From sequence record MZ189262.1: a DNA stretch of 64,000 nucleotides. One strand, 5' to 3'. Below are positions 5,650 through 39,096 of the stretch, in pieces; position 1 is the stretch's first letter, and every line of letters starts with the position of its first letter. The stretch comes from Escherichia phage W143. A program made the position numbers and the translations under genes. A model generated the notes under the pieces. That model saw only the letters and a list, made by a program, of their open reading frames with translations. It had not been told where the DNA came from and did no database searches.

Positions 5650-5790
5650 ATCAAATCCTCAAAGGCAATTCATATGTTAATAATACCACAGTTTGAACTT
5701 CTTGTAAACAACTTTGTGAAAATTATTTTAGGGAATGATAAGAAGGGAACGATAGCTTAGAATGGTAATATACAGAATGCGAGAAAGAAA

Positions 5791-6752: not shown

Positions 6753-7223
6753 TTAATCATGTTTCCACACCCCATCGGTATTTGACCAAAGTCGCTGATT
6801 ATCTGAACCTCGCCACAGCTTTTTGGTCGGAAGATTTTTCTCATACTTCCCATCAATAATAACATCAACATATTTAAGCATTTCTAGTTGTTTAATATCT
6901 TCAAACTTGTACCCTGTCCACAACCAAATGCTTTTATTCGGATAAAGATTTTTTACCGTTTGAACAATGCAATGAACAGCATCTCGGTTATCAGGATAAA
7001 GAGGGTCTCCTCCAGTTATAGTTAATCCTTCTATATAATCATTATTCAAACATTCAATTAATTGTTCTAGTGTTTCACCAGTGAATGGAACGCCATTTCT
7101 AGCATTCCATGTTGATTTATTATAACACCCTTCACATTTATGCAAACACCCCGTAACGAAAAGAACGACCCTGCATCCAGGGCCATTCACAAAATCGCAG
7201 GGATAAAATCTATCGTAATTCAT
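6753..7223 (-). CDS. nrdG: Anaerobic ribonucleotide reductase activating protein (radical SAM)
   Basis: 156 aa; cysteine cluster CLHKCEGC; 4-nt overlap with the nrdD stop. Confidence 0.85.
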   Translation of the reverse strand: MNYDRFYPCDFVNGPGCRVVLFVTGCLHKCEGCYNKSTWNARNGVPFTGETLEQLIECLNNDYIEGLTITGGDPLYPDNRDAVHCIVQTVKNLYPNKSIWLWTGYKFEDIKQLEMLKYVDVIIDGKYEKNLPTKKLWRGSDNQRLWSNTDGVWKHD

Positions 7224-9037
7224 TGGTGTTTAATCCTATGCATGATTTCTTTATTTTTGCCAAGATTAAATCCGCGCTCGTTCGGATTTCCCAAATAGCC
7301 ACATGTTCTTCTTATTGTGTTCATCTTTTTAGGATCAGTTTCTCCACAAATAGAACAAACAAATCCGTTTTCAGTAGGAGTCATTTCATGGGTACTTCCA
7401 CATGTAAAACATTTATCTACTGGCATATTAACACCAAAATAATCTAAATGTTGTGCAGCATAATCCCATACAGCCTCAAGACCTTTTAGGTTATTTTTCA
7501 TATCAGGAAGTTCAACATAAGAAATGTGACCACCTGTCGCAATGAAATGATACGGAGCTTCGCGAGAAATCTTTTCAAACGGAGTAATATTTTCTTCTAC
7601 TGAAACGTGGAAACTATTAGTGTACCATCCTTTATCAGTAACATCTTTTACACTTCCATATTTTTCTGTATCAAGTTTACAGAAGCGATAACAAAGGTTT
7701 TCAGCAGGAGTAGAATACAAGCTAAAAGCAAAACCGGTTCTTTCAGTCCACTGCTTAAGACGAGCATTCATTTTAGTCAAAATTTCCTGTCCAATATCAC
7801 GTCCGACAAGAATATTCAATTCGTGAATACCAATGTATCCTAAAGACACCGAACTTCTACCGTTTTTAAATAACTCAATTATATCATCATCAGGTTTAAG
7901 ACGAACCCCAAATGCACCTTCTTGGTAAAGAATAGGAGCAACAGTAGCTTTAACTCCTTTTAAGGAACTAATTCTACACATCAAAGCTTCAAAACACAAA
8001 TCCATTCGCTCATTGAATAATTCAGTAAATTTCTGTTCATTGAACTGTGTTCCAATATAAGAATCTAGCGCAATACGAGGAAGATTCAGTGTTACAACGC
8101 CAAGATTATTACGTCCATCAAGAATTTCATTACCAGTCGAATCTTTCCATACACTTAAGAAACTGCGGCAACCCATTGGAGAAACAGGAATAGATGAACC
8201 TGTGATAGCTTTATTATTCTTAACTGAAATAATATCAGGATACATTCTTTTACTTGCACACTCTAGGGCAAGTTGCTTAATATCATAGTTCGGATCGTCT
8301 TTATAAAGATTGACACCCTCTTCAACGAACATAACAAGTTTAGGGAAAATAGGAGTTATCCCGTCACGACCGAGACCTTTAATGCGATTTTTCAGAATTG
8401 CTTTCTGAATCATTCGTTCAGTCCAGTCAGTTCCCGTACCAAATGTAATTGTTACAAAAGGCGTTTGTCCGTTTGAGCTAAAGAGAGTATTTACTTCGTA
8501 TTCATAAGCTTGGAATGCATCGTATACGTCTTTTTCTGTTTTAGATTGGGCATAATTCAATGCATCAGCGATTTGCCATTTTTCTGCGTCCTCAATATGT
8601 TTTGCGTAGGTGCGTTTAACATAAGGAGAAAGGACTTTATCTACATTCGCAAAAGTCGTTCCGCCATATTGATGGGAAGCAACCTGCGCAGTAATTTGTG
8701 CCATAATTGCAGTAGCAACGCCGATTGATTTAGGAGTTTCAATCTGCGCATTACCGAGCTTAAATCCGTTCTCAAGCATTCCTTTTAAATCTACTAAACA
8801 GCAATTAGTAAATGGAAGAGCGGGGGAATAATCAATATCATGGAAATGGATAATTCCGCTTTCATGCGCTTTCATAATAAAAGACGGGACCATATTTTTG
8901 GCAATGTGTTTAGACACAATACCAGCCATAAGGTCCCGTTGAGTTGGAAAAACACGAGAATCTTTATTAGCATTCTCGTTTAAAAGGTCTTTATTAGTTT
9001 TATGAATCAATCCTTCAATTTCTTTTTCAATTGTCAT
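7220..9037 (-). CDS. nrdD: Anaerobic ribonucleoside-triphosphate reductase, uninterrupted
   Basis: 605-aa continuous ORF; C-terminal zinc ribbon CFTCGSTHE...CSICG and glycyl-radical motif RRTCGYLG. Confidence 0.92.
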   Translation of the reverse strand: MTIEKEIEGLIHKTNKDLLNENANKDSRVFPTQRDLMAGIVSKHIAKNMVPSFIMKAHESGIIHFHDIDYSPALPFTNCCLVDLKGMLENGFKLGNAQIETPKSIGVATAIMAQITAQVASHQYGGTTFANVDKVLSPYVKRTYAKHIEDAEKWQIADALNYAQSKTEKDVYDAFQAYEYEVNTLFSSNGQTPFVTITFGTGTDWTERMIQKAILKNRIKGLGRDGITPIFPKLVMFVEEGVNLYKDDPNYDIKQLALECASKRMYPDIISVKNNKAITGSSIPVSPMGCRSFLSVWKDSTGNEILDGRNNLGVVTLNLPRIALDSYIGTQFNEQKFTELFNERMDLCFEALMCRISSLKGVKATVAPILYQEGAFGVRLKPDDDIIELFKNGRSSVSLGYIGIHELNILVGRDIGQEILTKMNARLKQWTERTGFAFSLYSTPAENLCYRFCKLDTEKYGSVKDVTDKGWYTNSFHVSVEENITPFEKISREAPYHFIATGGHISYVELPDMKNNLKGLEAVWDYAAQHLDYFGVNMPVDKCFTCGSTHEMTPTENGFVCSICGETDPKKMNTIRRTCGYLGNPNERGFNLGKNKEIMHRIKHQ

Positions 9038-12420: not shown

Positions 12421-12434
12421 AGCCATCCTTGGCT
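12421..12434 (-). other. Short hairpin with TCCT/AGGA loop
   Basis: agcca-tcct-tggct; same loop with different stems at 13476-13489 and 15860-15879. Confidence 0.35.
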
Positions 12435-12439: not shown

Positions 12440-13441
12440 TTACTTAATTAACTGTAAAGCTTGTTCCAGACGATCAAGACGATTAACAGATTCTTCCCAA
12501 ATCCTTTTAGCCTGCTCATATTCTTTCTGCGCTTTATTAGAAATTTCTAGAGCTTCTTTATAAGCTTTTTCTAATGCAATAACTTCTGGACGAATTTCGA
12601 CAGGTTTAGGCGAATCATCAAGATTATCCATTAGTTCCTCAAGTGTAGTTTCTTCTTTAGGAGTATTCACAATTTCATCACATTTTTGTTGGTAAATTTC
12701 TTTATCAGTCGGTGAATAAGCACATTTCACTTCACGAAGACTAACTACAATTTTATATCCTTCCCAACCGCATATATTCTTAAAAGGATAAGTATGAATA
12801 TTTTCTACCGTTTCCATACAAAGTAATGCGGTTTCTAATTGACGAGTTATAGTGCTAGCAATTGAGAAAAATTTATTAATATTCTTTTGGTTAGTTTCTG
12901 GTGTAAAAAATCCATAATTCACAAAAATAGCTACTTTATTTTTATCAAGCTCATATTCTTTTACGATAATCATATCAGAAGCCAAAGGATGAATTTGACG
13001 ATAATCGCCATAACATAATTTAGAAGCTGATTTTAGAATCTGTCCTTTGAAAAGTCTGAAATTACTAATCCAACGACGAGTAAAAATATTCTCAGGGTCT
13101 TCTTTATTATTAAGATGATAAGAATTAACATCACCGAACCAATTATATCCTACTACATCTTTGGTTCGTTTAATTTCTTTCCCAAAATTACCAAGAATAT
13201 CCCGATTAACCAAATATGAAAGAAGACGAGACTCTTTAAAGGTTTTCTTGATAACATCTTTATCTACACGACTAGAAATTTTACGAATTTCATGAATAAA
13301 TTTAGTAGAAGAAACAATACTCGCGTCAACGCTATTGAGCCATTGATTGATAATAGAAATAACGCTATTTTGGCCAAACACCGGTATAGCTTTATCATCA
13401 ATAACACTATTGAATGATTTGATATATTCGTTACGAGTCAT
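12440..13441 (-). CDS. Hypothetical protein with C-terminal coiled coil (333 aa), family member B
   Basis: Track start at 13492 lies inside the promoter; ATG 13441 (MTRNEY) has SD GAGGAG; coiled-coil tail. Confidence 0.55.
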   Translation of the reverse strand: MTRNEYIKSFNSVIDDKAIPVFGQNSVISIINQWLNSVDASIVSSTKFIHEIRKISSRVDKDVIKKTFKESRLLSYLVNRDILGNFGKEIKRTKDVVGYNWFGDVNSYHLNNKEDPENIFTRRWISNFRLFKGQILKSASKLCYGDYRQIHPLASDMIIVKEYELDKNKVAIFVNYGFFTPETNQKNINKFFSIASTITRQLETALLCMETVENIHTYPFKNICGWEGYKIVVSLREVKCAYSPTDKEIYQQKCDEIVNTPKEETTLEELMDNLDDSPKPVEIRPEVIALEKAYKEALEISNKAQKEYEQAKRIWEESVNRLDRLEQALQLIK

Positions 13442-13469
13442 ATTAATCTCCTCAGTAGAAAGTAAGAAC

Positions 13470-13499
13470 ATTATACCACATCCTTGTGGCAAAGTAAAC
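13470..13499 (-). promoter_or_regulatory. Early promoter GTTTAC-N18-TATAAT with hairpin in the spacer
   Basis: -35 at 13494-13499 overlaps the stop of the upstream gene; -10 at 13470-13475. Confidence 0.55.
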
Positions 13500-15421: not shown

Positions 15422-15829
15422 TCACTCAATTTCAATTTTACTAAATACACAGAATATGATTGAACAGACTACATAAGCGCCACACACGGATTGAACTAAT
15501 ACCATCCCAAAGAACCAAACAATATTATCAAACAGTGTCTGTTTTACGTCGAAAGGACGTAAACTTACAGTAATATTATCACCTTTTTCTATTGAAGAAT
15601 ACATCTCTGGTGAAATATATTCACTAAATCTATAACCGTCTTTAAGTTCATATACGGCAATAAACGATAAACTAGACCCTTTTCCTTGTGTTCCTGTAAT
15701 GGTATTAACTACAGTAACATCATAATCTTTATAATGCATATAATCATTAATTGCGTAATAACCGTATGCAACTACTACACATAAACAACATATCAATAAA
15801 TTCAATCTTTTAATTATCAACTGTTTCAT
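15422..15829 (-). CDS. Hypothetical membrane protein (135 aa)
   Basis: Hydrophobic helices near both termini. Confidence 0.5.
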   Translation of the reverse strand: MKQLIIKRLNLLICCLCVVVAYGYYAINDYMHYKDYDVTVVNTITGTQGKGSSLSFIAVYELKDGYRFSEYISPEMYSSIEKGDNITVSLRPFDVKQTLFDNIVWFFGMVLVQSVCGAYVVCSIIFCVFSKIEIE

Positions 15830-15858
15830 AATAATCTCAATTAAAAGGGCTTAGAACC

Positions 15859-15879
15859 ATTATACCATCCTTGGTATAA
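15859..15879 (-). promoter_or_regulatory. Extended -10 (TGGTATAAT) embedded in an 8-bp perfect palindrome TTATACCA-AGGA-TGGTATAA
   Basis: Read from sequence; dyad symmetry suggests a protein-binding site or RNA hairpin overlapping the promoter. Confidence 0.35.
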
Positions 15880-15884
15880 AGCGG

Positions 15885-16412
15885 TTATGCGAGTACCGTC
15901 TTTAACCGTTCTTCAAACTTCCGAAGAGTATTTTGGCGTTCAGCTCTTTGCTTTTTGTAAGTTTCAATACGCTCTGAAATGAGAGAGTATCGTTCATTTA
16001 CTGATTCTTTCATAAAATCAGGAATTTCACGAGAAGCTTTAATCTCATCAAATTTATCAATAACAGCTTGTTCTTCAGCAATTAAGTTATCATACATTAA
16101 AATATCTTTCTTGATAAACTCAATATCTTCTTGAGTTACACGAGATAATTTAGATGCTTTATCCTTTTTGTACTGTTCGTTAGTATCACGAGACCAGTGT
16201 AATGTACGATTTTTATTCGTATTCTTGTAAATTTCTACAATACCAATCTCATCGATAATAACGATCCAATTCCAACGGGATTTGTAAATTTGTCCTCCAT
16301 CAACAGTGATTTCACCTCCGATTGAGATGTCGTTAAAGAACTTACTTTGTGCTTCAGATTTAAATTTACCATCGTTGTAATTTACCAGGTTGAAAATATC
16401 TTTAGCGTTCAT
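15885..16412 (-). CDS. Hypothetical protein with C-terminal coiled coil (175 aa), family member E
   Basis: ATG 16412 with SD GGAGGAA; C-terminal 70 aa heptad-rich. Confidence 0.5.
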   Translation of the reverse strand: MNAKDIFNLVNYNDGKFKSEAQSKFFNDISIGGEITVDGGQIYKSRWNWIVIIDEIGIVEIYKNTNKNRTLHWSRDTNEQYKKDKASKLSRVTQEDIEFIKKDILMYDNLIAEEQAVIDKFDEIKASREIPDFMKESVNERYSLISERIETYKKQRAERQNTLRKFEERLKTVLA

Positions 16413-16440
16413 TTTGTGTTCCTCCGTAGTTGATAGTTGT

Positions 16441-16470
16441 ATAGTACCACAGAGGAGCAGTCTTGTAAAC
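16441..16470 (-). promoter_or_regulatory. Early promoter GTTTACA-N17-TACTAT plus conserved leader ACAACTATCAACTAC
   Basis: About 45 nt nearly identical to 18556-18609 and 35866-35916. Confidence 0.55.
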
Positions 16471-16472
16471 CA

Positions 16473-16787
16473 CTAAAAGAAACTTCTTTCACAATTTTTT
16501 CCACTGAACCATGCGCTCACTGCTTTCTTAGTCTCAGGAGCAGTGTTATCCATAAACCATTCAAAGGCAGCCTTTTTATGATTCTGGAGGGCTTCTCGGG
16601 CTTTAATCTGCTCACGGTCTATTAACACTAACATATGAGCCTTTCTTGTCACCATGGGCTTCTTATGATTTTTTGAATACTCCCAGTCATTTGTCCATCG
16701 CATTGTTGTTGCGAACTGAAATACTGCTTCTTTAATCTTAGTTTCGTAAATTTCACGAGCCTTTGAGTATAACATCATTACCTCCAT
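16473..16787 (-). CDS. Hypothetical protein (104 aa)
   Basis: ORF between promoter cassettes. Confidence 0.45.
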   Translation of the reverse strand: MEVMMLYSKAREIYETKIKEAVFQFATTMRWTNDWEYSKNHKKPMVTRKAHMLVLIDREQIKAREALQNHKKAAFEWFMDNTAPETKKAVSAWFSGKNCERSFF

Positions 16788-16857
16788 TTACCAGTTTAAT
16801 TCTAGTCATCTTTTTGATGGCAGTCCATATAATCTATTTCTGAACTGCCTTTTTGTC

Positions 16858-17577
16858 TTAGGATTCTTTTAAATGTCTTTTCTGAAAAGTTGATACCATA
16901 CTACGATACGGTTCATTTGGATACCCGTGTTTTATAGCTTCCTTTGTAAATTTTCTCCATCCATATTTAGTTTCTTTCCAAAGCTCGAATAATTCATCTT
17001 CATACTGCCATATAGTTAAATGAGAACGCTTTGCAGCTTTAATTCCATTAATATGCTTTTCTTTTACTACAGGATTGCTTAGTTTCTTTTTAATAATATT
17101 ACTAACTTTTCTAACAAAAACTGGGTCCTTATATCGTTGCGAAGTTTTTATTGAAGTGTTTAATTTAGCTTCCGGTGTAGATGTGACCTCTTTCATCTTT
17201 TTCTTCATATGCTGTATATGATTAGGATTTTTCCATAAATTTATAGAATGCTTTTTGCATTTTATCCTAGTTTCATCTGCAACCTTTCCTCCTTCACCTC
17301 CGTATGACAGGTTAACACAGTTTTTTCCATATTTCAATTTACCTGCCATGATATATAATATTTCAGCTTGTACCATTTTATCATAATTATCAAAAACTTC
17401 TAAAACCGTTTTTGATAATATGTGGTCATTTGACACTTTTACACGTTCTATATAATTTCCACTACCAACATACGAATCATTGATGTTATTAGTTATATGT
17501 CGACCATAATAGTATTTCTTAATACCTGTCTTTAAATTTAATATTTCAGTTTTATAGATAGTAAAATATTTTTTCAT
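16858..17577 (-). CDS. GIY-YIG homing endonuclease, seg-like (239 aa)
   Basis: N-terminal TIYKTEILN...KKYYYGRH, NDSYVGSG and GGEGG motifs shared with the segB-like ORF at 36463-37128; ATGA overlap with the upstream ATPase stop. Confidence 0.65.
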   Translation of the reverse strand: MKKYFTIYKTEILNLKTGIKKYYYGRHITNNINDSYVGSGNYIERVKVSNDHILSKTVLEVFDNYDKMVQAEILYIMAGKLKYGKNCVNLSYGGEGGKVADETRIKCKKHSINLWKNPNHIQHMKKKMKEVTSTPEAKLNTSIKTSQRYKDPVFVRKVSNIIKKKLSNPVVKEKHINGIKAAKRSHLTIWQYEDELFELWKETKYGWRKFTKEAIKHGYPNEPYRSMVSTFQKRHLKES

Positions 17578-18542
17578 TTTAATAATACCGTTTCAGCGAT
17601 TTCTTCCCAATGATTTTTGTCGGTCATAATAAAGTCAGCAAGATAAAGAGCAGTACGCAGTGAAACATTGCGTAAACGATTAACATTAACTTTCATCCAT
17701 GATAATGCTTTATAAGTTTCTTCATCAGAAAGACCGCGCTTTTGCATCATGTCAGTTGAAAGAATAACATCTTCAACCCTGACCATAATTTCTTCATTAG
17801 TGTGAACACCCAAATCTAAATAAACTGAGCGGGACACTAATGCTTGTAAATGTGGAGCAAGTTTAGTACCACGGTCTAATTCGCGGTCAATGTCAACGTT
17901 TGTGATAAAAACAATCGTTCCTTTAAATTCAAACTCACGGTCAATGCCTTTTTCTTCTAAGTAAGAAGATGCAGTGCTCCAGCAGACTTTACGGGTCTCT
18001 CCAGTGTCCAGAGCAGCTTTTAGAAGATTAAGAATGTCCATATCAGAGAAAACATCCACATCATCAATCAAAAGGACAGAATTCTCTTCACGATTATTCC
18101 AAAGCTGTTCATAAAGACCAATACCAGAGATTTTACCATTAATGCTTTTATATTCAATGTATCCATTATCATTTGCTTTATTTAAAGCTTTATCTAAAGA
18201 ATACGTTTTACCAATACCTGCTGCGCCAGAGATAATTAATGAACGAATATTTCCGTTAATAATACCATTCGTCATCATTCCCATAACATTAAATCTTTTA
18301 TTAATGCGGGTTTTCATATCTTCATATGATTCTTTAACTTCTTCAACTTTTACACCATCATATGAAATATCTGATTTGTAAACCCAAACACCGCGACGTT
18401 TACCGTCAATTTCAACAAAAACTTTACCATCTCCTTGTGCATCTACCGGAGCATTATCAGGGAACCACTCACCTAAGAGCTCAAAAGTTCCAGAGATTTC
18501 TTTACCGAAGTAGATACCCTTATTGATAGTTACAGTTTTCAT
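17574..18542 (-). CDS. AAA+ family ATPase (322 aa)
   Basis: Walker A SGAAGIGKT and Walker B VLLIDDVD; track start is TTG 18554, ATG 18542 follows GGAGAATAAA. Confidence 0.65.
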   Translation of the reverse strand: MKTVTINKGIYFGKEISGTFELLGEWFPDNAPVDAQGDGKVFVEIDGKRRGVWVYKSDISYDGVKVEEVKESYEDMKTRINKRFNVMGMMTNGIINGNIRSLIISGAAGIGKTYSLDKALNKANDNGYIEYKSINGKISGIGLYEQLWNNREENSVLLIDDVDVFSDMDILNLLKAALDTGETRKVCWSTASSYLEEKGIDREFEFKGTIVFITNVDIDRELDRGTKLAPHLQALVSRSVYLDLGVHTNEEIMVRVEDVILSTDMMQKRGLSDEETYKALSWMKVNVNRLRNVSLRTALYLADFIMTDKNHWEEIAETVLLK

Positions 18543-18579
18543 TTTATTCTCCAAATCTGTATCAGTAGTTGATAGTTGT

Positions 18580-18609
18580 ATAGTACCATAAAGCTTTATG
18601 CTTGTAAAC
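18580..18609 (-). promoter_or_regulatory. Early promoter GTTTACA-N17-TACTAT plus conserved leader
   Basis: -35 at 18604-18609, -10 at 18580-18585. Confidence 0.55.
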
Positions 18610-18633
18610 CGTTTTGTGAAAAAATTTTTGAAA

Positions 18634-18663
18634 TAAAAAAGGGGGACCTCTAGGGCCCCCTTT
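18634..18663 (-). terminator. Rho-independent terminator (GGGGG.CC-UCUA-GG.CCCCC, U-run)
   Basis: Strong GC hairpin flanked by A-run and T-run, so potentially bidirectional. Confidence 0.65.
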
Positions 18664-18671
18664 GTGTTGAT

Positions 18672-19157
18672 TTATTCCATTTCTACTATATGCATGTTCT
18701 TTTTGCTATCAAAATATATGTTTTTAACTATTAACTCAGAATTAATTGGCAGTAAAAACTCTCTTTCATAATCTACCATACAAAGATTATCATAAAGCTT
18801 GTTAAGCTTATCATCGTCAGTTTGGCCAGATTCTTCAATTGCGATTAAATTTTCTAAAATGTCAATCATAGCAGTCGAATAGTCGAAAACGTTTGCATTT
18901 TTTAACACTACTAAAACATTAGTCATATAGCGTTCTGCCGCAAACGTTTCAGCTATATGAGACTCACTGCTAAAGGAAGTTATTCTTTTAAATTTGATTC
19001 TCCTATTAACTTCAAACTTATAAGATAACACTTCCTCTATTGTAAGTCCTCTAAAAAGTGTGTCTTTAATCTCAAGTTTGTCTTTAATGTAATCATTAAC
19101 ACGCTTATGATTAAAATCATTAATTTTGTTGCCAAGGCATTGCATTAAAATATGCAT
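18672..19157 (-). CDS. Hypothetical protein (161 aa)
   Basis: ATG with SD GAGGAG; bounded by promoter and terminator. Confidence 0.5.
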   Translation of the reverse strand: MHILMQCLGNKINDFNHKRVNDYIKDKLEIKDTLFRGLTIEEVLSYKFEVNRRIKFKRITSFSSESHIAETFAAERYMTNVLVVLKNANVFDYSTAMIDILENLIAIEESGQTDDDKLNKLYDNLCMVDYEREFLLPINSELIVKNIYFDSKKNMHIVEME

Positions 19158-19203
19158 TGTATTCTCCTCAATTTTTAAAGAGCAATTAATTAACTACACA
19201 TAT

Positions 19204-19233
19204 ATTATAATATGCTTTGCGATAGAAGTAAAC
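19204..19233 (-). promoter_or_regulatory. Early promoter GTTTAC-N18-TATAAT
   Basis: -35 at 19228-19233, -10 at 19204-19209. Confidence 0.6.
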
Positions 19234-19256: not shown

Positions 19257-19279
19257 AAAAAAAGGAGCCCGAAGGCTCC
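19257..19279 (-). terminator. Rho-independent terminator (GGAGCC-UUCG-GGCUCC, U7)
   Basis: 6-bp GC stem, UUCG loop, seven U on the minus-strand RNA, just past the stop at 19283. Confidence 0.65.
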
Positions 19280-19282
19280 CTA

Positions 19283-20296
19283 TCATTTATAATAACTTCG
19301 GTGGTTTTCAAGATAAACCCTCTCAAGGAAGTCATCCCAGAAACCCATGTCTACTTTTTGCTGCATACCGTTCTTAGAAGCTTCAATGGATGCTGCTTCT
19401 ACTTGATCGACCACATCTTCCAAAAACTCTTGAACAGTTTTAAATGGATGCTTACCCAACTTCACGTCGAGAATAAATGGAGCATCTTGGAGTGGATAAA
19501 CCAAGTCACCAGTTTTGTAAATTTCCAATAGTTGGAGTCCACCACGACAAGCATGACTCAGAGCTTTCCAGTCAATACCCTCATTAGCTTCAGCCTTACG
19601 AGCGCGTTCACCGTATTCGGCATCAAGTTTATTCAAAGACTGCTTAAGCTCAATAAGAGAAAGCGTTGTCTGATATTTACGACCCAACACAGTATAGAAC
19701 GTTTGCGGGCCTGTTTTCTCATGATTATGGAATACCCATTCACAGAACTCGTTTTCTGGAAGACGATGCTTAATATCTTCAACTTTAGTTCGACGCTGCT
19801 TAATGGAACCGTCTTCTTGGTAATCAACCCATTGCTCAGGGATTTGATTAACTACTTTCAATACATCACGTAATGCGGCCAAACGAGAACCCTTAACACC
19901 ATATTTAGAAGCTTGCTTGCGAACATATCCTAAATAGGATTTCATGTTAGTCGTATAAAAACGAGAACGATTGTCTTGGATAAATTTCCATACATCAGGC
20001 AAATCTGATTTAACCACTAGCTCAGGTGGAGTGTGAAGCATATCCAATGCTACAGTTTCACCATCTGCTGCTAATTTAAAGAAATACTTAAGACTGTATA
20101 GTTCATGGTCAATATCATCTTTAGTGTTTTTAGATGATGTGTTGTTAGTGTTTTTACTCATATGCTCTTTAACATTTCCGATAAGAATATCACGAGCAGG
20201 AGGAACAAAGATTTCTTTAAAATCTACATCAGATTCTGGAGTAGAAGTTCCATAAAGATGACTACCAAAATAGCTTTTCATTACTGTTTTCATCAT
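19283..20296 (-). CDS. Nucleotidyltransferase-fold protein (337 aa)
   Basis: N-terminal YFGSHLYGTSTPESDVDF fits the polymerase-beta-type G[GS]-x9-13-DxD signature. Confidence 0.5.
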   Translation of the reverse strand: MMKTVMKSYFGSHLYGTSTPESDVDFKEIFVPPARDILIGNVKEHMSKNTNNTSSKNTKDDIDHELYSLKYFFKLAADGETVALDMLHTPPELVVKSDLPDVWKFIQDNRSRFYTTNMKSYLGYVRKQASKYGVKGSRLAALRDVLKVVNQIPEQWVDYQEDGSIKQRRTKVEDIKHRLPENEFCEWVFHNHEKTGPQTFYTVLGRKYQTTLSLIELKQSLNKLDAEYGERARKAEANEGIDWKALSHACRGGLQLLEIYKTGDLVYPLQDAPFILDVKLGKHPFKTVQEFLEDVVDQVEAASIEASKNGMQQKVDMGFWDDFLERVYLENHRSYYK

Positions 20297-21986: not shown

Positions 21987-22016
21987 ACTATACCATAACC
22001 TTGCCAACTTGTAAAC
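21987..22016 (-). promoter_or_regulatory. Early promoter GTTTACA-N17-TATAGT
   Basis: -35 at 22011-22016, -10 at 21987-21992. Confidence 0.5.
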
Positions 22017-22798: not shown

Positions 22799-22828
22799 AT
22801 AGTATCACAGCTCAAATGGAAAGTAAAC
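22799..22828 (-). promoter_or_regulatory. Early promoter GTTTAC-N18-TACTAT
   Basis: -35 at 22823-22828, -10 at 22799-22804. Confidence 0.55.
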
Positions 22829-26692: not shown

Positions 26693-27154
26693 TCATTGAG
26701 TTTTAATTACTGCTTTAGAAGCCTTTCCTGGTAAACGACGACTGTTGATAATTGCCATCCTGCACTGAAGTGACGGGTCTTTGAACTTCGCATTAGGTTT
26801 ACAAACTGTAAATCCAAGCCAAAGATTTCCATCTGTGATTTCTAAACGTCCAGGACGATATTCAACCCCATCAATAAAATCCTCATCAATGTCAGGACGT
26901 GGAGGCATACTCAGGAATTCATTAACTTCTAAAACGTGGTCTTTTATTTTATGGAATAATTCAAAAACATATGTCTCATCAATCTCCCGTTGAATTGCAC
27001 GATCAAGAAGATGCTGAGAATATTTTAGATGAAACGATGAGACCCCTGCTGCTTTTGATGCCTCACGAATCTCATTGTTAATTTGGCGAAACTCCGACTC
27101 AAAGTGACGACGGAGCTTATTTCGACGGATAAAAACTTCTGTGTTGATAGTCAT
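26693..27154 (-). CDS. regB: Endoribonuclease RegB
   Basis: 153 aa starting MTINTEVFIRRNKLRRHFESEF, matches my recollection of T4 RegB. Confidence 0.85.
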   Translation of the reverse strand: MTINTEVFIRRNKLRRHFESEFRQINNEIREASKAAGVSSFHLKYSQHLLDRAIQREIDETYVFELFHKIKDHVLEVNEFLSMPPRPDIDEDFIDGVEYRPGRLEITDGNLWLGFTVCKPNAKFKDPSLQCRMAIINSRRLPGKASKAVIKTQ

Positions 27155-27181
27155 GTTATTCTCCTCTTAACTGATAGAAAA

Positions 27182-27211
27182 ATTATACCATAGTCAAGAG
27201 GAAAAGTAAAC
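27182..27211 (-). promoter_or_regulatory. Early promoter GTTTAC-N18-TATAAT upstream of regB
   Basis: -35 at 27206-27211, -10 at 27182-27187. Confidence 0.6.
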
Positions 27212-29411: not shown

Positions 29412-29478
29412 TCATCGAGTCATTTTACCTCTCCAAGTAATTATGAATATACTATCACAATTTTAGGAGAAAGTAAAC
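29412..29478 (-). other. denV-like promoter-leader-start remnant followed by a 3-codon ORF
   Basis: GTTTAC-N18-TAGTAT (29449-29478) then leader and ATGACTCG aligning with the denV promoter/leader/start at 31558-31615; reading frame stops after three codons. Confidence 0.5.
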
Positions 29479-29480: not shown

Positions 29481-29783
29481 TTATTTACCTTTAATTACTT
29501 TAGCTGCTTCGATAGCCGCTTGCTGAAGGTCATCCATAGACATACCGAATTTAGAAGCAAAGTTATCAATTTTCTTTTCGACAGCATTCAAAGGCTTGGC
29601 CTGTTTACCTTCATTAGCGCCAGGAAGAGCGAGAATACGTTCTTTGTCAATATAAAGGCTTACAAGTTTCTTACGGTCTTTATCGGACAAATCATGAAAT
29701 GAATGGGCCTTTTTATTTATAGCGGCTTCTAATTTACCTGCACTCACTCGCGCTTCAGTAATAAATTCTTGATATGTTTTCAT
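29481..29783 (-). CDS. ipII: Internal protein II
   Basis: 100 aa; capsid-targeting leader MKTYQEFITE|A; SD AAGGAA. Confidence 0.8.
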   Translation of the reverse strand: MKTYQEFITEARVSAGKLEAAINKKAHSFHDLSDKDRKKLVSLYIDKERILALPGANEGKQAKPLNAVEKKIDNFASKFGMSMDDLQQAAIEAAKVIKGK

Positions 29784-29820
29784 ATGTTTCCTTTAAATGT
29801 AAATAGTTTTATTCTTTAAG

Positions 29821-29895
29821 TTTGGGACAATTCGCACGCATGAATTGTCCGTTTCTATATTTATCTATTACCGGGTTCGAACTCGGCTTTATTAA
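29821..29895 (-). repeat. Intergenic repeat copy 2 with 9-bp hairpin GGACAATTC/GAATTGTCC
   Basis: Hairpin at 29824-29849; lies between the ipIII stop and ipII start. Confidence 0.55.
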
Positions 29896-30473
29896 GAATT
29901 ACCACGGGCTGCATTAGCAACGGCGTAAGCGTACTGAACATTAGCGTCTTTAAACGTACCTTTAGAGGTATCTAGTTCTGCCTTAAAGCCGCCTTTAGCC
30001 ATAACATCGGCAAATTCTTTACGGAAAGCCATTGCATCAAGACCTTTCCATGATGATTTGTGCTTAGCGAATTCAAGACCAGCGTAGTTGACAGCTTTAG
30101 CCAATTTATTATCAATGACCCATTTACCGGCTTTAGGCACAAACTTCGGGCCTTTTTGTTTAGAGAACAGTTTTAAATTCCAGCGACGAAGATCACTGTC
30201 GGCTTTAACAAAAGCTGCGTCTAAGTTACTAGCAACAACATCTTCAATATGAGCAAATTTAAGTCCGTCAACTTCAATATTTAAATCGGTACGCCAGCGA
30301 AGTCCTTCCCAAGCGAAAGCTTTAAAATCGGAAGCTTTTGTAGCTAAGTATCGTTCAATAGGGGCTGTTTTAGGGTCAAAGCCGTTTCCACCACGATAGT
30401 TCCACTCGTCCTTATTAATGCCTTTGGCCTTTACTACAGAAGCTTCAGCAATAAATTCTTGATACGTTTTCAT
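29892..30473 (-). CDS. ipIII: Internal protein III
   Basis: 193 aa; leader MKTYQEFIAE|A. Confidence 0.8.
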   Translation of the reverse strand: MKTYQEFIAEASVVKAKGINKDEWNYRGGNGFDPKTAPIERYLATKASDFKAFAWEGLRWRTDLNIEVDGLKFAHIEDVVASNLDAAFVKADSDLRRWNLKLFSKQKGPKFVPKAGKWVIDNKLAKAVNYAGLEFAKHKSSWKGLDAMAFRKEFADVMAKGGFKAELDTSKGTFKDANVQYAYAVANAARGNS

Positions 30474-30499
30474 TTTTGTTCCTATTGTTTTAATTCATG

Positions 30500-30814
30500 T
30501 TATTCTTTAGGGAAGTTTTTAGAGTATGCGTCATAAAGTTTATTACCGATGCGTCGGAAAACTCTAGCTGCAAAACGGTTTTCAGGGTTTTTAATCATGA
30601 TTTGCATCATGTAAGTTCCTGCATCCGAAAGAGCTTCTTCATAGTACCCATTAATTTCTTTAAGAGTCCTACGTTTACCACCAGGACCATCAACAGTAAT
30701 TTTCCATTTACCTGTAGAAGTGCGGCTCGGTGGCTCAACTTGTTCAATCCAAATATAACCACCTTCAACGCGTTGGTTGGCGGATTCTGCAATAAATTCT
30801 TTATACGTTTTCAT
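30500..30814 (-). CDS. Internal-protein-like capsid-targeted protein (104 aa)
   Basis: Leader MKTYKEFIAE|S; body not recognisable to me as IPI, IPII or IPIII. Confidence 0.65.
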   Translation of the reverse strand: MKTYKEFIAESANQRVEGGYIWIEQVEPPSRTSTGKWKITVDGPGGKRRTLKEINGYYEEALSDAGTYMMQIMIKNPENRFAARVFRRIGNKLYDAYSKNFPKE

Positions 30815-30844
30815 TTTTGTTTCCTTGTTTGTTTTGATAGAGTA

Positions 30845-30874
30845 ATTATACCATATTAATACTTAAGCGTAAAC
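30845..30874 (-). promoter_or_regulatory. Early promoter GTTTAC-N18-TATAAT upstream of the ip-like gene
   Basis: -35 at 30869-30874, -10 at 30845-30850. Confidence 0.55.
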
Positions 30875-30877
30875 CGT

Positions 30878-31138
30878 TTAAGCTTCACCGCCAGAAATAA
30901 TTCCGAAGTTGTTAAAATCGTATCCAATATCGTCAACATCTACTTTAGGACTTGCAGCAACATAAGCAATTTCACTACGTTTTGCATAGGTGTTGATTTC
31001 TTTACCATCACCACCTAAGAAAAAATACCCATTACGTTTTAATGAGCCAAAGTCTTCCGCATCACCAATGAAAGCTTTAACTTTAAATTTAGGACCTTTG
31101 GCATCTGCTTCAGCGATAAATTCTTGATACATTTTCAT
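30878..31138 (-). CDS. Internal-protein-like capsid-targeted protein (86 aa)
   Basis: Leader MKMYQEFIAE|A; divergent body. Confidence 0.65.
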   Translation of the reverse strand: MKMYQEFIAEADAKGPKFKVKAFIGDAEDFGSLKRNGYFFLGGDGKEINTYAKRSEIAYVAASPKVDVDDIGYDFNNFGIISGGEA

Positions 31139-31144
31139 TTTTCC

Positions 31145-31558
31145 TTAGTAAATTGATTTACCATAGTATTTGTACCAAGTAGGGCGTTGAGCAATTTTTT
31201 CATCTAAGCGAGCTTGACTTATCGCAATGGACGCTTCGGACGGGACATAATTATTACGAAATTCGACAGGGATGTCGGAAATATCCTGGACAGTCGTGTC
31301 CTTGATTTTGAAACCACGTTTCAAGCATTCAGCGATTAGCTCGATTTGACGTAAACGTAAAAATTCTAGTTTGTCGTAAAAGAATGTTACGTGACCTGTG
31401 CCTAAGATAAATGTTGGAGAGATTTTAAAATCCTTTACACGTTTACCGTTTTGAACATGTTTACGGACTGCACCAAATACGCGTGGTAATTCACGATACT
31501 CAGCCATAAGATGTTGGTCGGTCAGTTCAGAAACAAGTGTTAAATTGATACGAGTCAT
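31145..31558 (-). CDS. denV: Endonuclease V (pyrimidine-dimer DNA glycosylase)
   Basis: Track start is TTG 31570; ATG 31558 gives 137 aa starting [12 protein letters not shown], matching my recollection of T4 endonuclease V. Confidence 0.9.
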
Positions 31559-31585
31559 AATTTCCTCCAAGTAGTCGATGAATGT

Positions 31586-31615
31586 ATAGTATCAAAACCC
31601 TTGGAGGAAGTAAAC
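31586..31615 (-). promoter_or_regulatory. Early promoter GTTTAC-N18-TACTAT for denV
   Basis: -35 at 31610-31615, -10 at 31586-31591. Confidence 0.55.
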
Positions 31616-31617
31616 AA

Positions 31618-32420
<803 letters not shown>

Positions 32421-35334: not shown

Positions 35335-35511
35335 TTATACTCCAAAGAGTTTATAAACTATTTTAACATCTCCTTTTGCTGCTTTATAGCCTTCAGCCCA
35401 AGATACAACCGAGTTTTTATCTGAAGATTCAAAATCAGGCATTGGACTTTCATCAATGTTCACACAGTATGTTTCTTCATTTTCGTCAAACCAAATAGTT
35501 AAAATAGTCAT
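35335..35511 (-). CDS. Small ORF (58 aa), not in the ORF track
   Basis: ATG 35511 with SD GGAGAAATAA; hand-translated with no internal stop. Confidence 0.35.
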   Translation of the reverse strand: MTILTIWFDENEETYCVNIDESPMPDFESSDKNSVVSWAEGYKAAKGDVKIVYKLFGV

Positions 35512-35547
35512 TTATTTCTCCGCTTCTGTGATTGTTTTGATAAATCT

Positions 35548-35577
35548 ATAATAACACCGTCCTTGGCGTTTGTACAC
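35548..35577 (-). promoter_or_regulatory. Early-type promoter GTGTAC-N18-TATTAT
   Basis: Same architecture as the GTTTAC family, placed directly after the upstream stop. Confidence 0.4.
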
Positions 35578-35579: not shown

Positions 35580-35843
35580 TTATTTCATATTATTGAAATA
35601 TTCTTCTGCAATTTCATCATTATCATGGTAAACTTTAGAAGACAGTTTAACATAACCTTCTGCTGTGAACATGTTAATCACAACTTTTACAGTATACCAC
35701 TGACCGTCTTCATTACCCATTACTGCGTAAGTTTCAAACATCGGATGGTCAGGACCGATGACTTTAATATCATTCACTGTACGACCGAAATCTTCTGAAA
35801 CGCATTTCATAAAGAAGTTGAACAGTTCGCCGTAATTATCCAT
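35580..35843 (-). CDS. Hypothetical acidic protein (87 aa)
   Basis: Track start is TTG 35855; ATG 35843 follows GGAGAATGAA. Confidence 0.5.
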   Translation of the reverse strand: MDNYGELFNFFMKCVSEDFGRTVNDIKVIGPDHPMFETYAVMGNEDGQWYTVKVVINMFTAEGYVKLSSKVYHDNDEIAEEYFNNMK

Positions 35844-35886
35844 TTCATTCTCCAAGTTGTTTTCTGTATCAGTAGTTGATAGTTGT

Positions 35887-35916
35887 ATAGTACCATGGAA
35901 GAACAGGGATGTAAAC
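35887..35916 (-). promoter_or_regulatory. Early promoter GTTTACA-N17-TACTAT plus conserved leader
   Basis: -35 at 35911-35916, -10 at 35887-35892; nearly identical to the copies at 16441-16470 and 18580-18609. Confidence 0.55.
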
Positions 35917-36382: not shown

Positions 36383-36459
36383 TGGTCGAGGCAGAAGGAT
36401 TCTAACCTTCAACCAACGGATTAGAAATCCGTTGCTCTATACAATTGAGCTATGCCCCG
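36383..36459 (-). tRNA. tRNA-Arg (anticodon UCU)
   Basis: Hand-folded cloverleaf; anticodon loop TTTCTAA; CCA encoded; unusual T-loop TTAGAAT. Confidence 0.7.
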
Positions 36460-36462
36460 TAA

Positions 36463-37128
36463 TTAAAATTTCATTTTTCGACCTTTAAACCATCCTTCTG
36501 GAATTGGGTCAGTTTTCTTAATACGTTTAGAAACTTTTTCATCTAATGAATGAATCCACATCATACCGAATTGGGAATTCTTTTCACCTTGTTGGTGTTT
36601 ATTTCTGGCGTGAGATTCTTTCATTTTATTAATAGTTTCAGGAGTATGATGCTTATTTAAAAATCTGCTATTATTTAAAAATTTTTCCCTGTATTCAGGA
36701 GTTGACCACAAGCGTTTAAATATATTTGAACCATGTTTACGATATTTTTCTTGAAGTAAAATATCATTTTTAAAACGTGACTTAAACGATTTAGCTCCTT
36801 TTAAACTAGCGTCTTTCTTCTGATTTAGCATCTCAGGAATATTTAAATGGTCCCATCCACCTTCACCGCCAAGTTTTAAATTATACACATCTGGTCTATT
36901 TAAAAACTCTTCTGTGACAATATTTTTCTCGGCTTCAAGCATAGATTCTTTATCATCAAAATACTCTAATATTTCTTTAGAGAAATTTTCTATACCATAC
37001 TTGTCTTGGGCTCTTTTTAATAATTTACCAGAACCCATATATCCATCATCTAAATTTTCGGTAGAATGAGCGCCTATGTAGATTTTATTATTAATTTTAT
37101 TTGTTATTTTATAAATGTAATGGAACAT
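36463..37128 (-). CDS. segB: GIY-YIG homing endonuclease SegB-like, embedded in the tRNA cluster
   Basis: 221 aa; motifs YIYKITN...KIYIGAHS, DDGYMGSG, GGEGG; lies between tRNA-Ile and tRNA-Arg. Confidence 0.8.
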   Translation of the reverse strand: MFHYIYKITNKINNKIYIGAHSTENLDDGYMGSGKLLKRAQDKYGIENFSKEILEYFDDKESMLEAEKNIVTEEFLNRPDVYNLKLGGEGGWDHLNIPEMLNQKKDASLKGAKSFKSRFKNDILLQEKYRKHGSNIFKRLWSTPEYREKFLNNSRFLNKHHTPETINKMKESHARNKHQQGEKNSQFGMMWIHSLDEKVSKRIKKTDPIPEGWFKGRKMKF

Positions 37129-37169
37129 AAATATCTCCTATTTCTAAGAGTATTTATGTTCTCAAAATA

Positions 37170-37241
37170 TGGCCCTGGGTGGAATTGAACCACCATCTGG
37201 CGATTATGAGTCGCTTGCTTGAACCTTCCAGCTACAGGGCC
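37170..37241 (-). tRNA. tRNA-Ile (anticodon CAU, T4-type) or tRNA-Met
   Basis: Perfect acceptor stem GGCCCTG/CAGGGCC; anticodon loop CTCATAA; T-arm GGTGG-TTCAATT-CCACC. Confidence 0.75.
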
Positions 37242-37242
37242 T

Positions 37243-37318
37243 TGGTGCTGATTGACGGAATCGAACCGCCGACGTCCTCATTACAAGTGAGGTGCTCTAC
37301 CTACTGAGCTAAATCAGC
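37243..37318 (-). tRNA. tRNA-Thr (anticodon UGU)
   Basis: Anticodon loop CTTGTAA; CCA encoded. Confidence 0.8.
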
Positions 37319-37325
37319 GAAATTA

Positions 37326-37412
37326 CGGAGGCGATAGGATTTGAACCTATGAGTCGCCGGAGCGACTGCCGGTTTTCAAGACCGGTGCATTAAACCACTC
37401 TGCCACGCCTCC
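37326..37412 (-). tRNA. tRNA-Ser (anticodon UGA), long variable arm
   Basis: Anticodon loop CTTGAAA; 87 nt; 2-nt spacer to tRNA-Pro. Confidence 0.8.
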
Positions 37413-38336: not shown

Positions 38337-38366
38337 ATAATATCACTACCCCATCTAAAAGTAAAC
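38337..38366 (-). promoter_or_regulatory. Early promoter GTTTAC-N18-TATTAT
   Basis: -35 at 38361-38366, -10 at 38337-38342. Confidence 0.5.
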
Positions 38367-38685: not shown

Positions 38686-38745
38686 TTTATTTTCCTAATT
38701 AATTTTGATGAGATAATAGTACCACAACCCTATTTAAAAGTAAAC

Positions 38746-39054: not shown

Positions 39055-39083
39055 ATAGTATCACAACTAAAACCCCGTGTAAA
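39055..39083 (-). promoter_or_regulatory. Early promoter TTTACA-N17-TACTAT
   Basis: -35 at 39078-39083, -10 at 39055-39060. Confidence 0.5.
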
Positions 39084-39096
39084 TAACTTTGTGAAA

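Follow-up and report, generated by a model that had tools for sequence, protein, structure and literature searches.

Repeated early promoter cassettes of a T4-like phage and a possible role of their spacers in read-through RNA

The near-identical repeats on the minus strand of the window, the whole 64,000-nucleotide stretch of Escherichia phage W143 DNA analysed here (MZ189262.1), are very probably sigma-70-dependent early promoters (Pe) of a T4-like phage, kept alike by selection together with ectopic recombination or gene conversion, with a spacer that would not be neutral. The repeats are real but not new: they are strong early promoters already annotated in T4 and already proposed as PeSL cassettes, the PeSL gene-shuffling proposal having been published by Arbiol 2010 and Comeau 2014. 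As far as we are aware, a gating role of the spacer as a general property of early promoters is apparently undescribed in the literature, and in the PeSL papers the stems are regarded as terminators.

The window is a segment of a Tequatrovirus (T4-like) genome that is collinear with T4 and 98.5% identical to phage N2. The three flagged copies, all on the minus strand, correspond as orthologues to the nrdC.8, nrdC.10, and e.8 promoters of T4, with the same position and orientation, and their T4 counterparts lie at 53,913, 55,354, and 70,666. Each is orthologous to a recognised T4 promoter; GenBank U76612 annotates -35/-10 signals and a terminator at the T4 nrdC.8/nrdC.10 sites and names the nrdC.10 site "early promoter 54.4". 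Promoter activity in W143 is expected from this orthology and from the consensus. The three cassettes are arranged as follows.

16410..16470, minus strand: nrdC.8 early promoter cassette, T4 orthologue with the -35/-10 annotation in U76612; -35 GTTTAC 16465-16470, spacer 16447-16464, -10 TACTAT 16441-16446, discriminator ACAACT 16435-16440, putative +1 16434, SD GGAGG 16421-16425, ATG 16410-16412
18540..18609, minus strand: nrdC.10 early promoter cassette, T4 orthologue "early promoter 54.4"; -35 18604-18609, palindromic spacer ATAAAGCTTTAT, -10 18580-18585, putative +1 18573, SD/RegB-type site GGAGAATAAAA 18542-18552, ATG 18540-18542
35841..35916, minus strand: e.8 early promoter cassette, downstream of the tRNA/rnaC-rnaD region; -35 35911-35916, -10 35887-35892, putative +1 35880, ATG 35841-35843

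All three copies contain GTTTACA, the extended -10 TGG, and TACTAT, match a T4 profile built from 36 promoters, and end in the Shine-Dalgarno (SD) and start codon of the downstream gene. A UP element, AAAAATTTTTTCACAAAAC, precedes the nrdC.10 and e.8 promoters; the nrdC.8 counterpart is a weaker A-rich stretch inside the 3' end of nrdC.9. The 21-mer TACTATACAACTATCAACTAC occurs exactly three times, at the flagged places, against 0 expected. An earlier note had called the copies almost identical over about 45 nt, which is overstated: GTTTAC and a 24-nt block, TGG-TACTAT-ACAACTATCAACTAC, are identical, but overall the copies agree at 35-38 of 45 positions (78-84%) and their 18-nt spacers at 8-11 positions only. 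Rfam at the gathering threshold returned 8 tRNAs only and no match in the leaders, and Pfam gave DUF7203 (nrdC.9), weak P-loop matches (nrdC.10), and RlaP (nrdC.11) among the flanking genes.

The generic cassette begins with an A/T-rich UP element, overlapping the end of the upstream gene or following a terminator, and continues with GTTTAC(A/T) at -36 to -31, an 18-nt spacer (~17 nt counted from TTTACN) ending in the extended -10 TGG, and TAYTAT. Then come the conserved discriminator and start, ACAACT followed by ATCAACTAC, a short G-free unstructured leader, and a GGAG-type Shine-Dalgarno. In T4, the mapped starts (Pe26.4 27,044; Pe40.4 41,225; Pe148.6 150,727; Pe35.3 35,662; PMC6024815), set against the -10 coordinates computed here, fall on the 7th nt after the -10 hexamer, and ACAACT would therefore be an untranscribed discriminator. 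The W143 starts were placed by analogy with these four other T4 promoters, including Pe26.4, which has a sequence-identical core. About 20 transcribed nucleotides (ACAACTATCAACTAC) had been claimed for the conserved leader; this is wrong in detail, as 6 of its 15 bases (ACAACT) belong to the discriminator. The transcribed part common to the three copies would be AUCAACUAC (9 nt), and two copies would share 18 nt (AUCAACUACUGAUACAGA).

Among 36 aligned T4 promoters, information resides in the UP element and at -36 to -30, -17 to -7, and -3 to +7, and an A occupies -40 in 94% of the family. For the classical consensus, this analysis relies on Hinton 2010 and Nolan 2006, and beyond these on the profile recomputed here. 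The suggestion that conservation into the leader exceeds what a promoter needs is doubtful, both because -3 to +7 is conserved family-wide in T4 and because of the untranscribed share of the "leader". In nine nrdC.8 orthologues, CTATCAACTAC is invariant down to 68-70% protein identity, and the spacer and SD flank vary. Strong selection would hold every position that contacts RNA polymerase, the start region included, and the near-invariant AUCAACUAC at +1 to +9 in diverged orthologues suggests that the initial transcribed sequence is a selected part of very strong promoters. In a quite different reading, a specific factor would recognise the start region as an operator or RNA signal; it might be a repressor that shuts off early promoters by binding TATCA-N5-TGATA (-1 to +14). 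The window has four such palindromes where 0.26 would be expected, two of which belong to the nrdC.10 and e.8 cassettes, and five T4 subfamily promoters carry one as well; AUCAACUAC is invariant in diverged orthologues, and reviews state that the mechanism by which early promoters are shut off is not understood. However, the nrdC.8 copy and most family members carry the first half-site only, the five palindromic copies have the whole leader in common, so that the second half-site is explained by common descent, and no candidate binding protein is known or was identified here. We regard an operator as very improbable and attribute the start region to selection on the promoter.

The exact pattern GTTTAC-N17/18-TAYTAT is found at 8 sites in the window, whereas 0.09 would be expected, and every one of them is on the minus strand. 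With a relaxed motif (-10 TAnnnT, at most two mismatches overall, then SD and ATG), approximately 16 intergenic copies are found; the earlier figure of at least 12 copies is accordingly right for the relaxed motif but too high for the exact one. Many copies do start just after the upstream stop codon, as had been noticed, at a distance of 0-3 nt (16470, 13499, 35577, 31615, 29478, 27211). Further early promoters and promoter-like cores in the window are listed below.

5680..5709, minus strand: core GTTTAC...TATTAT, orthologue of the T4 site at about 41,676
13441..13499, minus strand: nrdC.4 early promoter, with a CCACA-AGGA-TGTGG hairpin (13476-13489) in the spacer
21987..22016, minus strand: core GTTTAC...TATAGT, with an inverted repeat around the -10 hexamer (duplex -16.9 kcal/mol, rank 1 of 17)
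22799..22828, minus strand: core upstream of a mobD.5-like gene, preceded by a terminator-like hairpin
27149..27211, minus strand: regB early promoter, spacer pairing with its own SD (-20.5 kcal/mol, z -5.0)
29449..29478, minus strand: core at the internal-protein locus
30845..30874, minus strand: core at the internal-protein locus
31553..31615, minus strand: early promoter of the denV homologue, spacer CCTCCAAG pairing with CTTGGAGG at the SD (-19.5 kcal/mol, z -4.6)
35548..35577, minus strand: core after e.8 (GTGTAC...TATTAT); homology to T4 stops precisely with the last base of the -10 hexamer, with a 58-aa ORF in place of T4 e.7
38337..38366, minus strand: core in the internal-protein/trna.4 region, with a T4 homology breakpoint in the spacer (38346)
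38716..38745, minus strand: core upstream of an internal-protein gene
39055..39084, minus strand: promoter-like core ATTTAC...TACTAT upstream of an internal-protein gene

Of the T4 early promoters, about 40%, that of nrdC.8 among them, have a spacer complementary to the promoter's own leader or Shine-Dalgarno. The nrdC.8 spacer-SD hairpin (-16.5 kcal/mol, z -3.7) spans the -10 hexamer; the nrdC.10 and e.8 cassettes have no significant RNA structure of their own (z about 0 for e.8). T4 spacers pair with their own downstream sequence at -11.5 kcal/mol versus -7.2 kcal/mol with that of another promoter (0 of 20,000 permutations), and own-downstream pairing is also better than that with other promoters in RB69 (0 of 20,000) and in the window (12 of 20,000). 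Predicted folding is stronger for the sense strand than for the antisense strand, and the orthologues of nrdC.8 show differing spacer/leader pairings. In T4, the SD is predicted to be paired in 16 of 38 read-through RNAs versus 2 of 38 primary transcripts. A structured leader in the primary transcript was considered and rejected, the primary leaders folding at 0 to -0.6 kcal/mol.

These folding predictions tentatively suggest that the "variable" spacer of T4-type early promoters might be a functional RNA element that pairs with its own leader or SD in read-through RNA, although we give this somewhat less than an even chance. The spacer would be the only part of the cassette free to vary, yet not neutral. 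RNA reading through from upstream would fold the ribosome-binding site into a hairpin, and the promoter's own transcript would stay open; where the transcript originated, or whether the upstream gene is translated, would then govern both ribosome access and RegB cleavage at GGAG. The stop codon of the upstream gene lies only a few bases before the 5' arm of the hairpin. If true, such an arrangement could account for a published finding, that early RNAs are inactivated by RegB whereas middle-mode RNAs with the same GGAG sites are not. The significant complementarity of spacer and own ribosome-binding site suggests a simple means by which the phage could handle a gene's promoter-proximal copies differently from its read-through ones.

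RegB sites had also been suspected in the leader itself. The strong RegB/S1 site is GG*AGRAYARAA (Durand 2006, cited in PMC3014915). The nrdC.10 SD, GGAGAATAAAA at 18542-18552, matches GGAGRAYARAA exactly and would lie in an unstructured primary leader; exact matches are also present at the SDs of two further early genes of the window, whereas the e.8 SD has one mismatch and the nrdC.8 SD does not match. The suspicion thus holds for nrdC.10 and not for nrdC.8, and the motif sits at and after the SD, outside the conserved AUCAACUAC.

Hairpins with an AGGA loop had been said to accompany several early promoters. One of them (13476-13489) does lie inside an early-promoter spacer, that of nrdC.4, but the other two (12421-12434 and 15862-15877) do not.

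12421..12434, minus strand: small GCCA-AGGA-TGGC hairpin between nrdC.4 and nrdC.3, with no adjoining early promoter (z -1.3)
15859..15882, minus strand: MotA-dependent middle promoter PnrdC.7, MotA box GCTTTA 15877-15882, 12-nt spacer, TATAAT 15859-15864

The hairpin at 15862-15877 falls within PnrdC.7, which is not an early promoter and agrees with the MotA middle-promoter pattern, (a/t)(a/t)(a/t)TGCTTtA and TAnnnT separated by 11-13 nt. In T4, PnrdC.7 has been mapped experimentally with its start at 53,325 (Hinton 2010 Table 1, PMC2988021), 23 nt before the ATG. Two AGGA hairpins folded individually gave z -1.3 and -1.45, which is not significant, and the word CAAGGAYG, found 4 times where 2.3 are expected, shows no enrichment. 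With neither word enrichment nor significant folds of these two, and with mixed promoter contexts, we rejected the AGGA-loop hairpins as a distinct motif.

The flagged copies belong to a mosaic subfamily with at least eight near-consensus copies per T4 genome. Segments are shared between distant promoters: in T4, frd.3 and nrdC.10 share 18/18 spacer positions, frd.3 and motA 30/30 of the UP element, imm.1 and ndd.6 30/30 of the leader and following bases, and imm.1 and ndd.4 17/18 of the spacer; in one IMG/VR phage, the cassette at ndd.4 equals that of nrdC.8. Repeated ectopic recombination or gene conversion between copies, as in the published PeSL model, would produce such a pattern, and the same exchange would occasionally insert, delete, or swap promoter-ORF-terminator modules. 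Convergence on the consensus could mimic part of the cassette similarity. Pure convergence, with each copy independently at the optimum for host RNA polymerase and no part in recombination or shuffling, agrees with the coincidence of the conserved positions with the family-wide consensus, with the orthologous stability of the promoters in hundreds of genomes, and with the absence of any deletion between the two flagged copies in 674 phage records. Nevertheless, identity reaches positions without family-wide information, in incongruent combinations such as the 18-nt spacers, shared whole by frd.3/nrdC.10 and at 17 of 18 positions by imm.1/ndd.4. Moreover, the nrdC.10 leader of the window differs from that of T4 by two changes, both of which match the e.8/motA version, and repeated cassette sequence lies at the borders of a module indel. 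We consider pure convergence unlikely, and selection combined with exchange between copies is preferred. The features around this indel, together with a gene between the two flagged nrdC cassettes, are as follows.

16858..17577, minus strand: seg-like homing endonuclease gene between nrdC.10 and nrdC.9, absent in T4 and present in RB32
18632..18660, minus strand: intrinsic-terminator-like hairpin GGGGGCCCTAGAGGTCCCC with a T-run at the end of the Mod-like ORF module, directly beside the nrdC.10 UP element
18672..19233, minus strand: inserted module absent from T4, with its own early promoter (-35 19228-19233, -10 19204-19209)
18672-19157, minus strand: 161-aa ModA-like ADP-ribosyltransferase paralogue in the inserted module
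19262..19281, minus strand: terminator-like hairpin after nrdC.11, also present in T4, at the upstream edge of the variable junction

The nrdC.11-nrdC.10 junction holds a module of promoter, Mod-like ORF, and putative terminator in the window and in T2 that is missing in T4, bounded by a repeated T-run/UP/-35 sequence, TTTTATTTCAAAAATTTTTTCACAAA..GTTTAC; EH2 and Moon have other modules at this junction. This is one further clean case of a module indel bounded by cassette repeats. EH2 was also considered as a lead for a recombined nrdC.8 promoter and rejected, its nrdC.8 promoter being ordinary. The idea that the cassettes flank shuffled genes therefore stands for the module at the junction but not for nrdC.9 and nrdC.10, which are conserved and never deleted in the 674 records. 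A chimeric query joining the nrdC.11 end, the nrdC.10 promoter, and nrdC.8, the product expected of recombination between the two flagged copies in a T4-type genome, was covered in one piece by none of these records. Between the two flagged cassettes, the seg-like homing endonuclease gene alone is variable, and it has a mobility mechanism of its own. A scan of IMG/VR with the 24-mer gave 12 loci, all orthologues of known T4 positions, with no new gene partners. Six of the 32 homology breakpoints with T4 fall in cassettes covering 4.2% of the early region (naive binomial P = 0.002), an enrichment confounded by the fact that whole-gene indels must break intergenically and most early intergenic DNA here is promoter.

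Compared with the T4 early promoters, whose common architecture is a UP element, GTTTAC, a TGn-extended -10, and an A start, and which carry "additional regions of consensus" outside the sigma-70 elements (Hinton 2010, PMC2988021), the W143 cassettes show no essential difference; in detail, the W143 nrdC.10 leader is the e.8/motA-type variant ACTACTGATACAGA and that of T4 is ACTGATACGGA. The PeSL idea was indeed published for exactly the phage group of W143, the concept by Arbiol 2010 and the PST/T4 consensus, TTTACW-N17-TAYWAT, which the W143 cassettes fit, by Comeau 2014. In both the PeSLs and W143, an early promoter is combined with an AT-rich upstream region, a stem-loop, and an SD with start codon, the stem-loop lying upstream of, within, or across the promoter, and the cassettes are sited in hyperplastic regions beside indels. 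A stem-loop accompanies nrdC.10 (the terminator-like hairpin 18642-18660 and the palindromic spacer) and nrdC.8, and is weak in e.8; association with indels or replacements among close relatives is likewise found, except for the interval between the two flagged copies. In the original PeSLs, those of RB49/phi1, the TTGACA/TATAAT boxes are near-perfect, and the stems are G/C-rich and have been shown to terminate transcription. In W143, by contrast, many stems lack a U-run and join the spacer to the SD, an arrangement that resembles translational or RNase gating more than termination. The hairpins at 18642-18660 and 19262-19281 have T-runs, whereas those crossing the -10 hexamer have none, and termination is therefore unlikely for the latter. 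The closest parallel to the proposed gating is found in T4 e, soc, 49, and I-TevI (PMC3014915), where the ribosome-binding site is sequestered in read-through RNA and open in transcripts from a hairpin-embedded promoter. In these genes and in the early cassettes alike, the promoter lies within the 5' arm or loop region, and only transcripts started upstream form, or are predicted to form, the inhibitory helix. The difference is that e, soc, 49, and I-TevI use late promoters and delayed expression (PMC3014915), whereas here the promoters are early and the arrangement is predicted to be widespread, in 16 of 38 in T4.

The three flagged cassettes (early promoter, leader, and SD) lie on the minus strand before nrdC.8, nrdC.10, and e.8. 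A megablast search with 15800-19200 matched 761 phage records, nearly all Tequatrovirus, with phage N2 as the best match (98.5% identity), and the gene names in the window were transferred from the annotations of N2, RB32, and T4:

15885-16412, minus strand: nrdC.8 (annotation transfer)
16473-16787, minus strand: nrdC.9 (annotation transfer)
16858-17577, minus strand: seg-like homing endonuclease, an insertion separating nrdC.10 from nrdC.9 that RB32 has and T4 lacks
17574-18542, minus strand: nrdC.10 (annotation transfer)
18672-19157, minus strand: extra 161-aa ORF
19283-20296, minus strand: nrdC.11 (annotation transfer)
35866-35916, minus strand: third flagged copy, upstream of e.8 and directly after the tRNA/rnaC/rnaD cluster

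The start of the seg-like gene overlaps the nrdC.10 stop codon. nrdC.11 matches Pfam RlaP (RNA-repair-pathway nucleotidyltransferase family, E = 3e-11), and the P-loop/STAND-NTPase matches of nrdC.10 are weak, under the curated cut-offs. Eight tRNA genes (Rfam) cluster at 36386-37738 (minus strand) around a segB-like ORF (36463-37128), as in T4. Compared with T4, the internal-protein locus is rearranged: the denV homologue (31145-31570) lies beyond the internal-protein genes. Seven copies of a ~40-nt repeat at 29748-31910 and 38650-39029 (coding on the minus strand) take in the SD, the start codon ATG, and the opening codons (MKTYQEFI...), resembling the common N-terminal capsid-targeting sequence of internal-protein genes.

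The flagged elements are already known. Their T4 counterparts, with the same sequences, are located at 53,913 (nrdC.8), 55,354 (nrdC.10), and 70,666 (e.8), and GenBank U76612 (T4) annotates a terminator, -35, and -10 before nrdC.10, labeled "early promoter 54.4", as well as -35/-10 signals before nrdC.8. PeSLs (promoter-early stem-loops) were defined in RB49/phi1 by Arbiol et al. 2010, for whom the T-even analogues are T4 early promoters with weaker AT-rich stems (on the internal-protein loci they cite Repoila 1994). The concept was extended to the PST/T4 pair by Comeau et al. 2014, with the consensus TTTACW-N17-TAYWAT. The earlier note was thus right in calling early promoters of the PeSL kind, which are real and far above chance: exact GTTTAC-N17/18-TAYTAT occurs eight times in the window (0.09 expected), always on the minus strand. 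Its figure of at least 12 copies is reached only with a relaxed motif (a -10 of any TAnnnT form, followed by an SD and ATG), which gives ~16 intergenic copies. Many copies do start 0-3 nt after the upstream stop codon, as it had stated.

The 21-mer TACTATACAACTATCAACTAC occurs exactly three times in the window, all at the flagged places. The near-identity claimed over ~45 nt holds for the -35, TGG-TACTAT, and the next 15 nt, which are identical, but the 45 nt from GTTTAC to CTAC are 78-84% identical overall and the 18-nt spacers between -35 and -10 agree at 8-11 positions only. The nrdC.10 and e.8 copies have 28 of 40 upstream bases and nine further leader bases in common. The T4 start sites quoted by Patterson-West et al. 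(PMC6024815), 27,044, 41,225, 150,727, and 35,662, all lie exactly 6 nt past the first base after the -10 hexamer; therefore, the predicted +1 is the A of ATCA, and ACAACT would be an untranscribed discriminator. Among the four, Pe26.4 (imm.1) matches the flagged copies in -10, discriminator, and leader. Of the ~20 nt reported as transcribed, the part common to the three copies would accordingly reduce to AUCAACUAC.

We assembled the T4 genome and aligned 36 early promoters. Information is found in the UP region (A at -40 in 94%), GTTTAC, tGTGG (-17 to -13), and the -10, and also at -3 to +7 (aCT/ATCAACT), with 0.3-0.6 bit per position; the Hinton review of these "uber" promoters already remarked on "additional regions of consensus". 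In essence, then, the flagged leader follows the family consensus, and it is doubtful that its conservation exceeds what a promoter needs. Purifying selection also acts on it among orthologues: nine nrdC.8 orthologues, with protein identity down to 68-70%, all keep CTATCAACTAC (-2 to +9) unchanged, whereas their spacers and SD flanks vary. In RB69, from another genus, most candidates have T at -1 and A at +1, and imm.1 is preceded by ATCAACTAC. A palindrome, TATCA-N5-TGATA, spans -1 to +14 in the nrdC.10 (18560-18574) and e.8 (35867-35881) promoters; it occurs four times in the window (0.26 expected) and in five T4 subfamily promoters. Its position is operator-like, but common ancestry could account for the palindrome.

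In T4, the near-identical form precedes imm.1, nrdC.8, nrdC.10, e.8, frd.3, motA, and ndd.6, and cassette segments are common to copies in incongruent combinations. frd.3 and nrdC.10 agree at 18/18 spacer positions and diverge from +4; frd.3 and motA share 30/30 UP positions but just 9/18 in the spacer; imm.1 and ndd.6 share 30/30 in the leader and following bases but just 7/18 in the spacer, whereas imm.1 and ndd.4 share 17/18 there. In one IMG/VR phage, the ndd.4 cassette equals the nrdC.8 cassette through the SD, which is not so in T4. The nrdC.10 leader of the window has two changes relative to T4, RB32, and T2, both restoring the e.8/motA version. This mosaic pattern, as read from the sequences, indicates exchange among copies rather than convergence alone. 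A diverged subfamily copy lies at ~6.6 kb in T4 (sequence L004), upstream of cef, with ATATAC at -35; the spacer of this ~6,600 copy, AGTAGTTGAT, is perfectly complementary to the conserved leader, ATCAACTACT.

Evidence of gene shuffling comes from the nrdC.11/nrdC.10 junction. The nrdC.10 promoter of T4 comes immediately after the nrdC.11 terminator, whereas T2 and the window have an early promoter, the 161-aa ORF, and a terminator inserted between these two elements. TTTTATTTCAAAAATTTTT(T)CACAAA..GTTTAC stands at either edge of the T2 module, which makes T4 look like a single-copy recombinant. This ORF, found in 52 records (T2 among them and T4 not), is distantly paralogous to ModA (28% identity, E = 3e-10; PHROG 832, "RNA polymerase ADP-ribosylase") and would make a third Mod-like enzyme. 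Its early promoter and terminator are its own. Citrobacter phage Moon carries the module at 92% identity, from a few bases before the module's -35 (GTTTAC at window 19228-19233; the match stops at 19239) to the terminator T-run, and both flanks differ. EH2 has another 66-aa ORF and another nrdC.10 promoter at this junction (2246-2630 of the EH2 sequence L009); that promoter reads GTATAC...TATAGT, and its -10 hexamer is bracketed by an inverted repeat.

Homology breakpoints relative to T4 fall inside cassettes, which cover 4.2% of the early region, in 6 of 32 cases (naive binomial P 0.002). This enrichment is confounded, since a whole-gene indel can only have its breakpoints in intergenic DNA. 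A number of the other breakpoints reflect the presence or absence of homing endonucleases or introns (mobB, mobC, I-TevII, segC, and the seg-like gene). Compared with T4, the window lacks mobB, mobC, the nrdD I-TevII intron, and segC (2400-2425, 7203-7223, 8497-8502, and 45347-45348), all clean presence/absence of homing elements. The window has an unrelated 58-aa ORF (35335-35577, minus strand) in place of T4 e.7, and T4 homology ends there exactly at the end of the -10 hexamer (35548). Exchange between the two neighboring flagged copies was not borne out: a chimeric query found the nrdC.9-nrdC.10 deletion in none of 674 records, and the homing endonuclease is the sole variable gene between them. 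This pair does not itself flank exchangeable genes.

The three AGGA-loop hairpins said to accompany early promoters are heterogeneous, one fitting that description:

12421-12434: without an adjoining early promoter
13476-13489: inside the nrdC.4 early-promoter spacer
15862-15877: within GCTTTA-N12-TATAAT, the MotA-dependent middle promoter PnrdC.7, mapped in T4 at 53,325

The two that were folded singly were not significant (z -1.3 and -1.45), and the word CAAGGAYG was not enriched in the window.

In many copies, the spacer is complementary to the SD or to the sequence just after the -10 hexamer. Against a null of spacers matched to other promoters' downstream sequence, pairing with the own downstream sequence was stronger in T4 (-11.5 vs -7.2 kcal/mol; 0/20,000 permutations as good), the window (-9.6 vs -7.3; 12/20,000), and RB69 (-9.2 vs -6.6; 0/20,000). 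The sense strand folds better than the antisense, also against each strand's own shuffles (P = 2e-5), which points to RNA rather than DNA structure. In the predicted fold of the nrdC.8 read-through RNA, started upstream of the promoter (-16.5 kcal/mol, z -3.7), GGAGG is paired, while the primary transcript lacks structure; the same holds for the promoters of regB and the denV homologue (z -5.0 and -4.6). For T4, folding predicts a paired SD in 16 of 38 read-through RNAs, against 2 of 38 primary transcripts. The nrdC.8 orthologues reach pairing through different sequences: GTTCCTCTGTGG with CTACGGAGGAAC in Tequatrovirus, CTCCAGTAG with CTACTGGAG in divergent phages, and an inverted repeat flanking the -10 in a third type. 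The spacer is therefore probably not free to vary. Folding of the nrdC.10 and e.8 cassettes gave no significant structure of their own. Because the spacer stems lack a U-run, termination is an unlikely role for them.

The suggestion that the leader is a RegB site applies in part. The published strong-site consensus is GG*AGRAYARAA, and GGAGRAYARAA occurs at three early SDs in the window (0.42 expected), including that of nrdC.10; the nrdC.8 SD does not match, e.8 has one mismatch, and the motif lies at and after the SD, outside the conserved AUCAACUAC. Secondary structure inhibits RegB; therefore, spacer-SD hairpins could leave read-through RNA resistant.

The complementarity between spacer and RBS is the sole lead that might exceed published descriptions, and a limited literature search returned no description of RBS sequestration as a general trait of early promoters. 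Read-through RNA with a sequestered RBS has been documented in four T4 cases, e, soc, 49, and I-TevI (PMC3014915), but the promoters embedded there, unlike the early promoters analyzed here, are all late.
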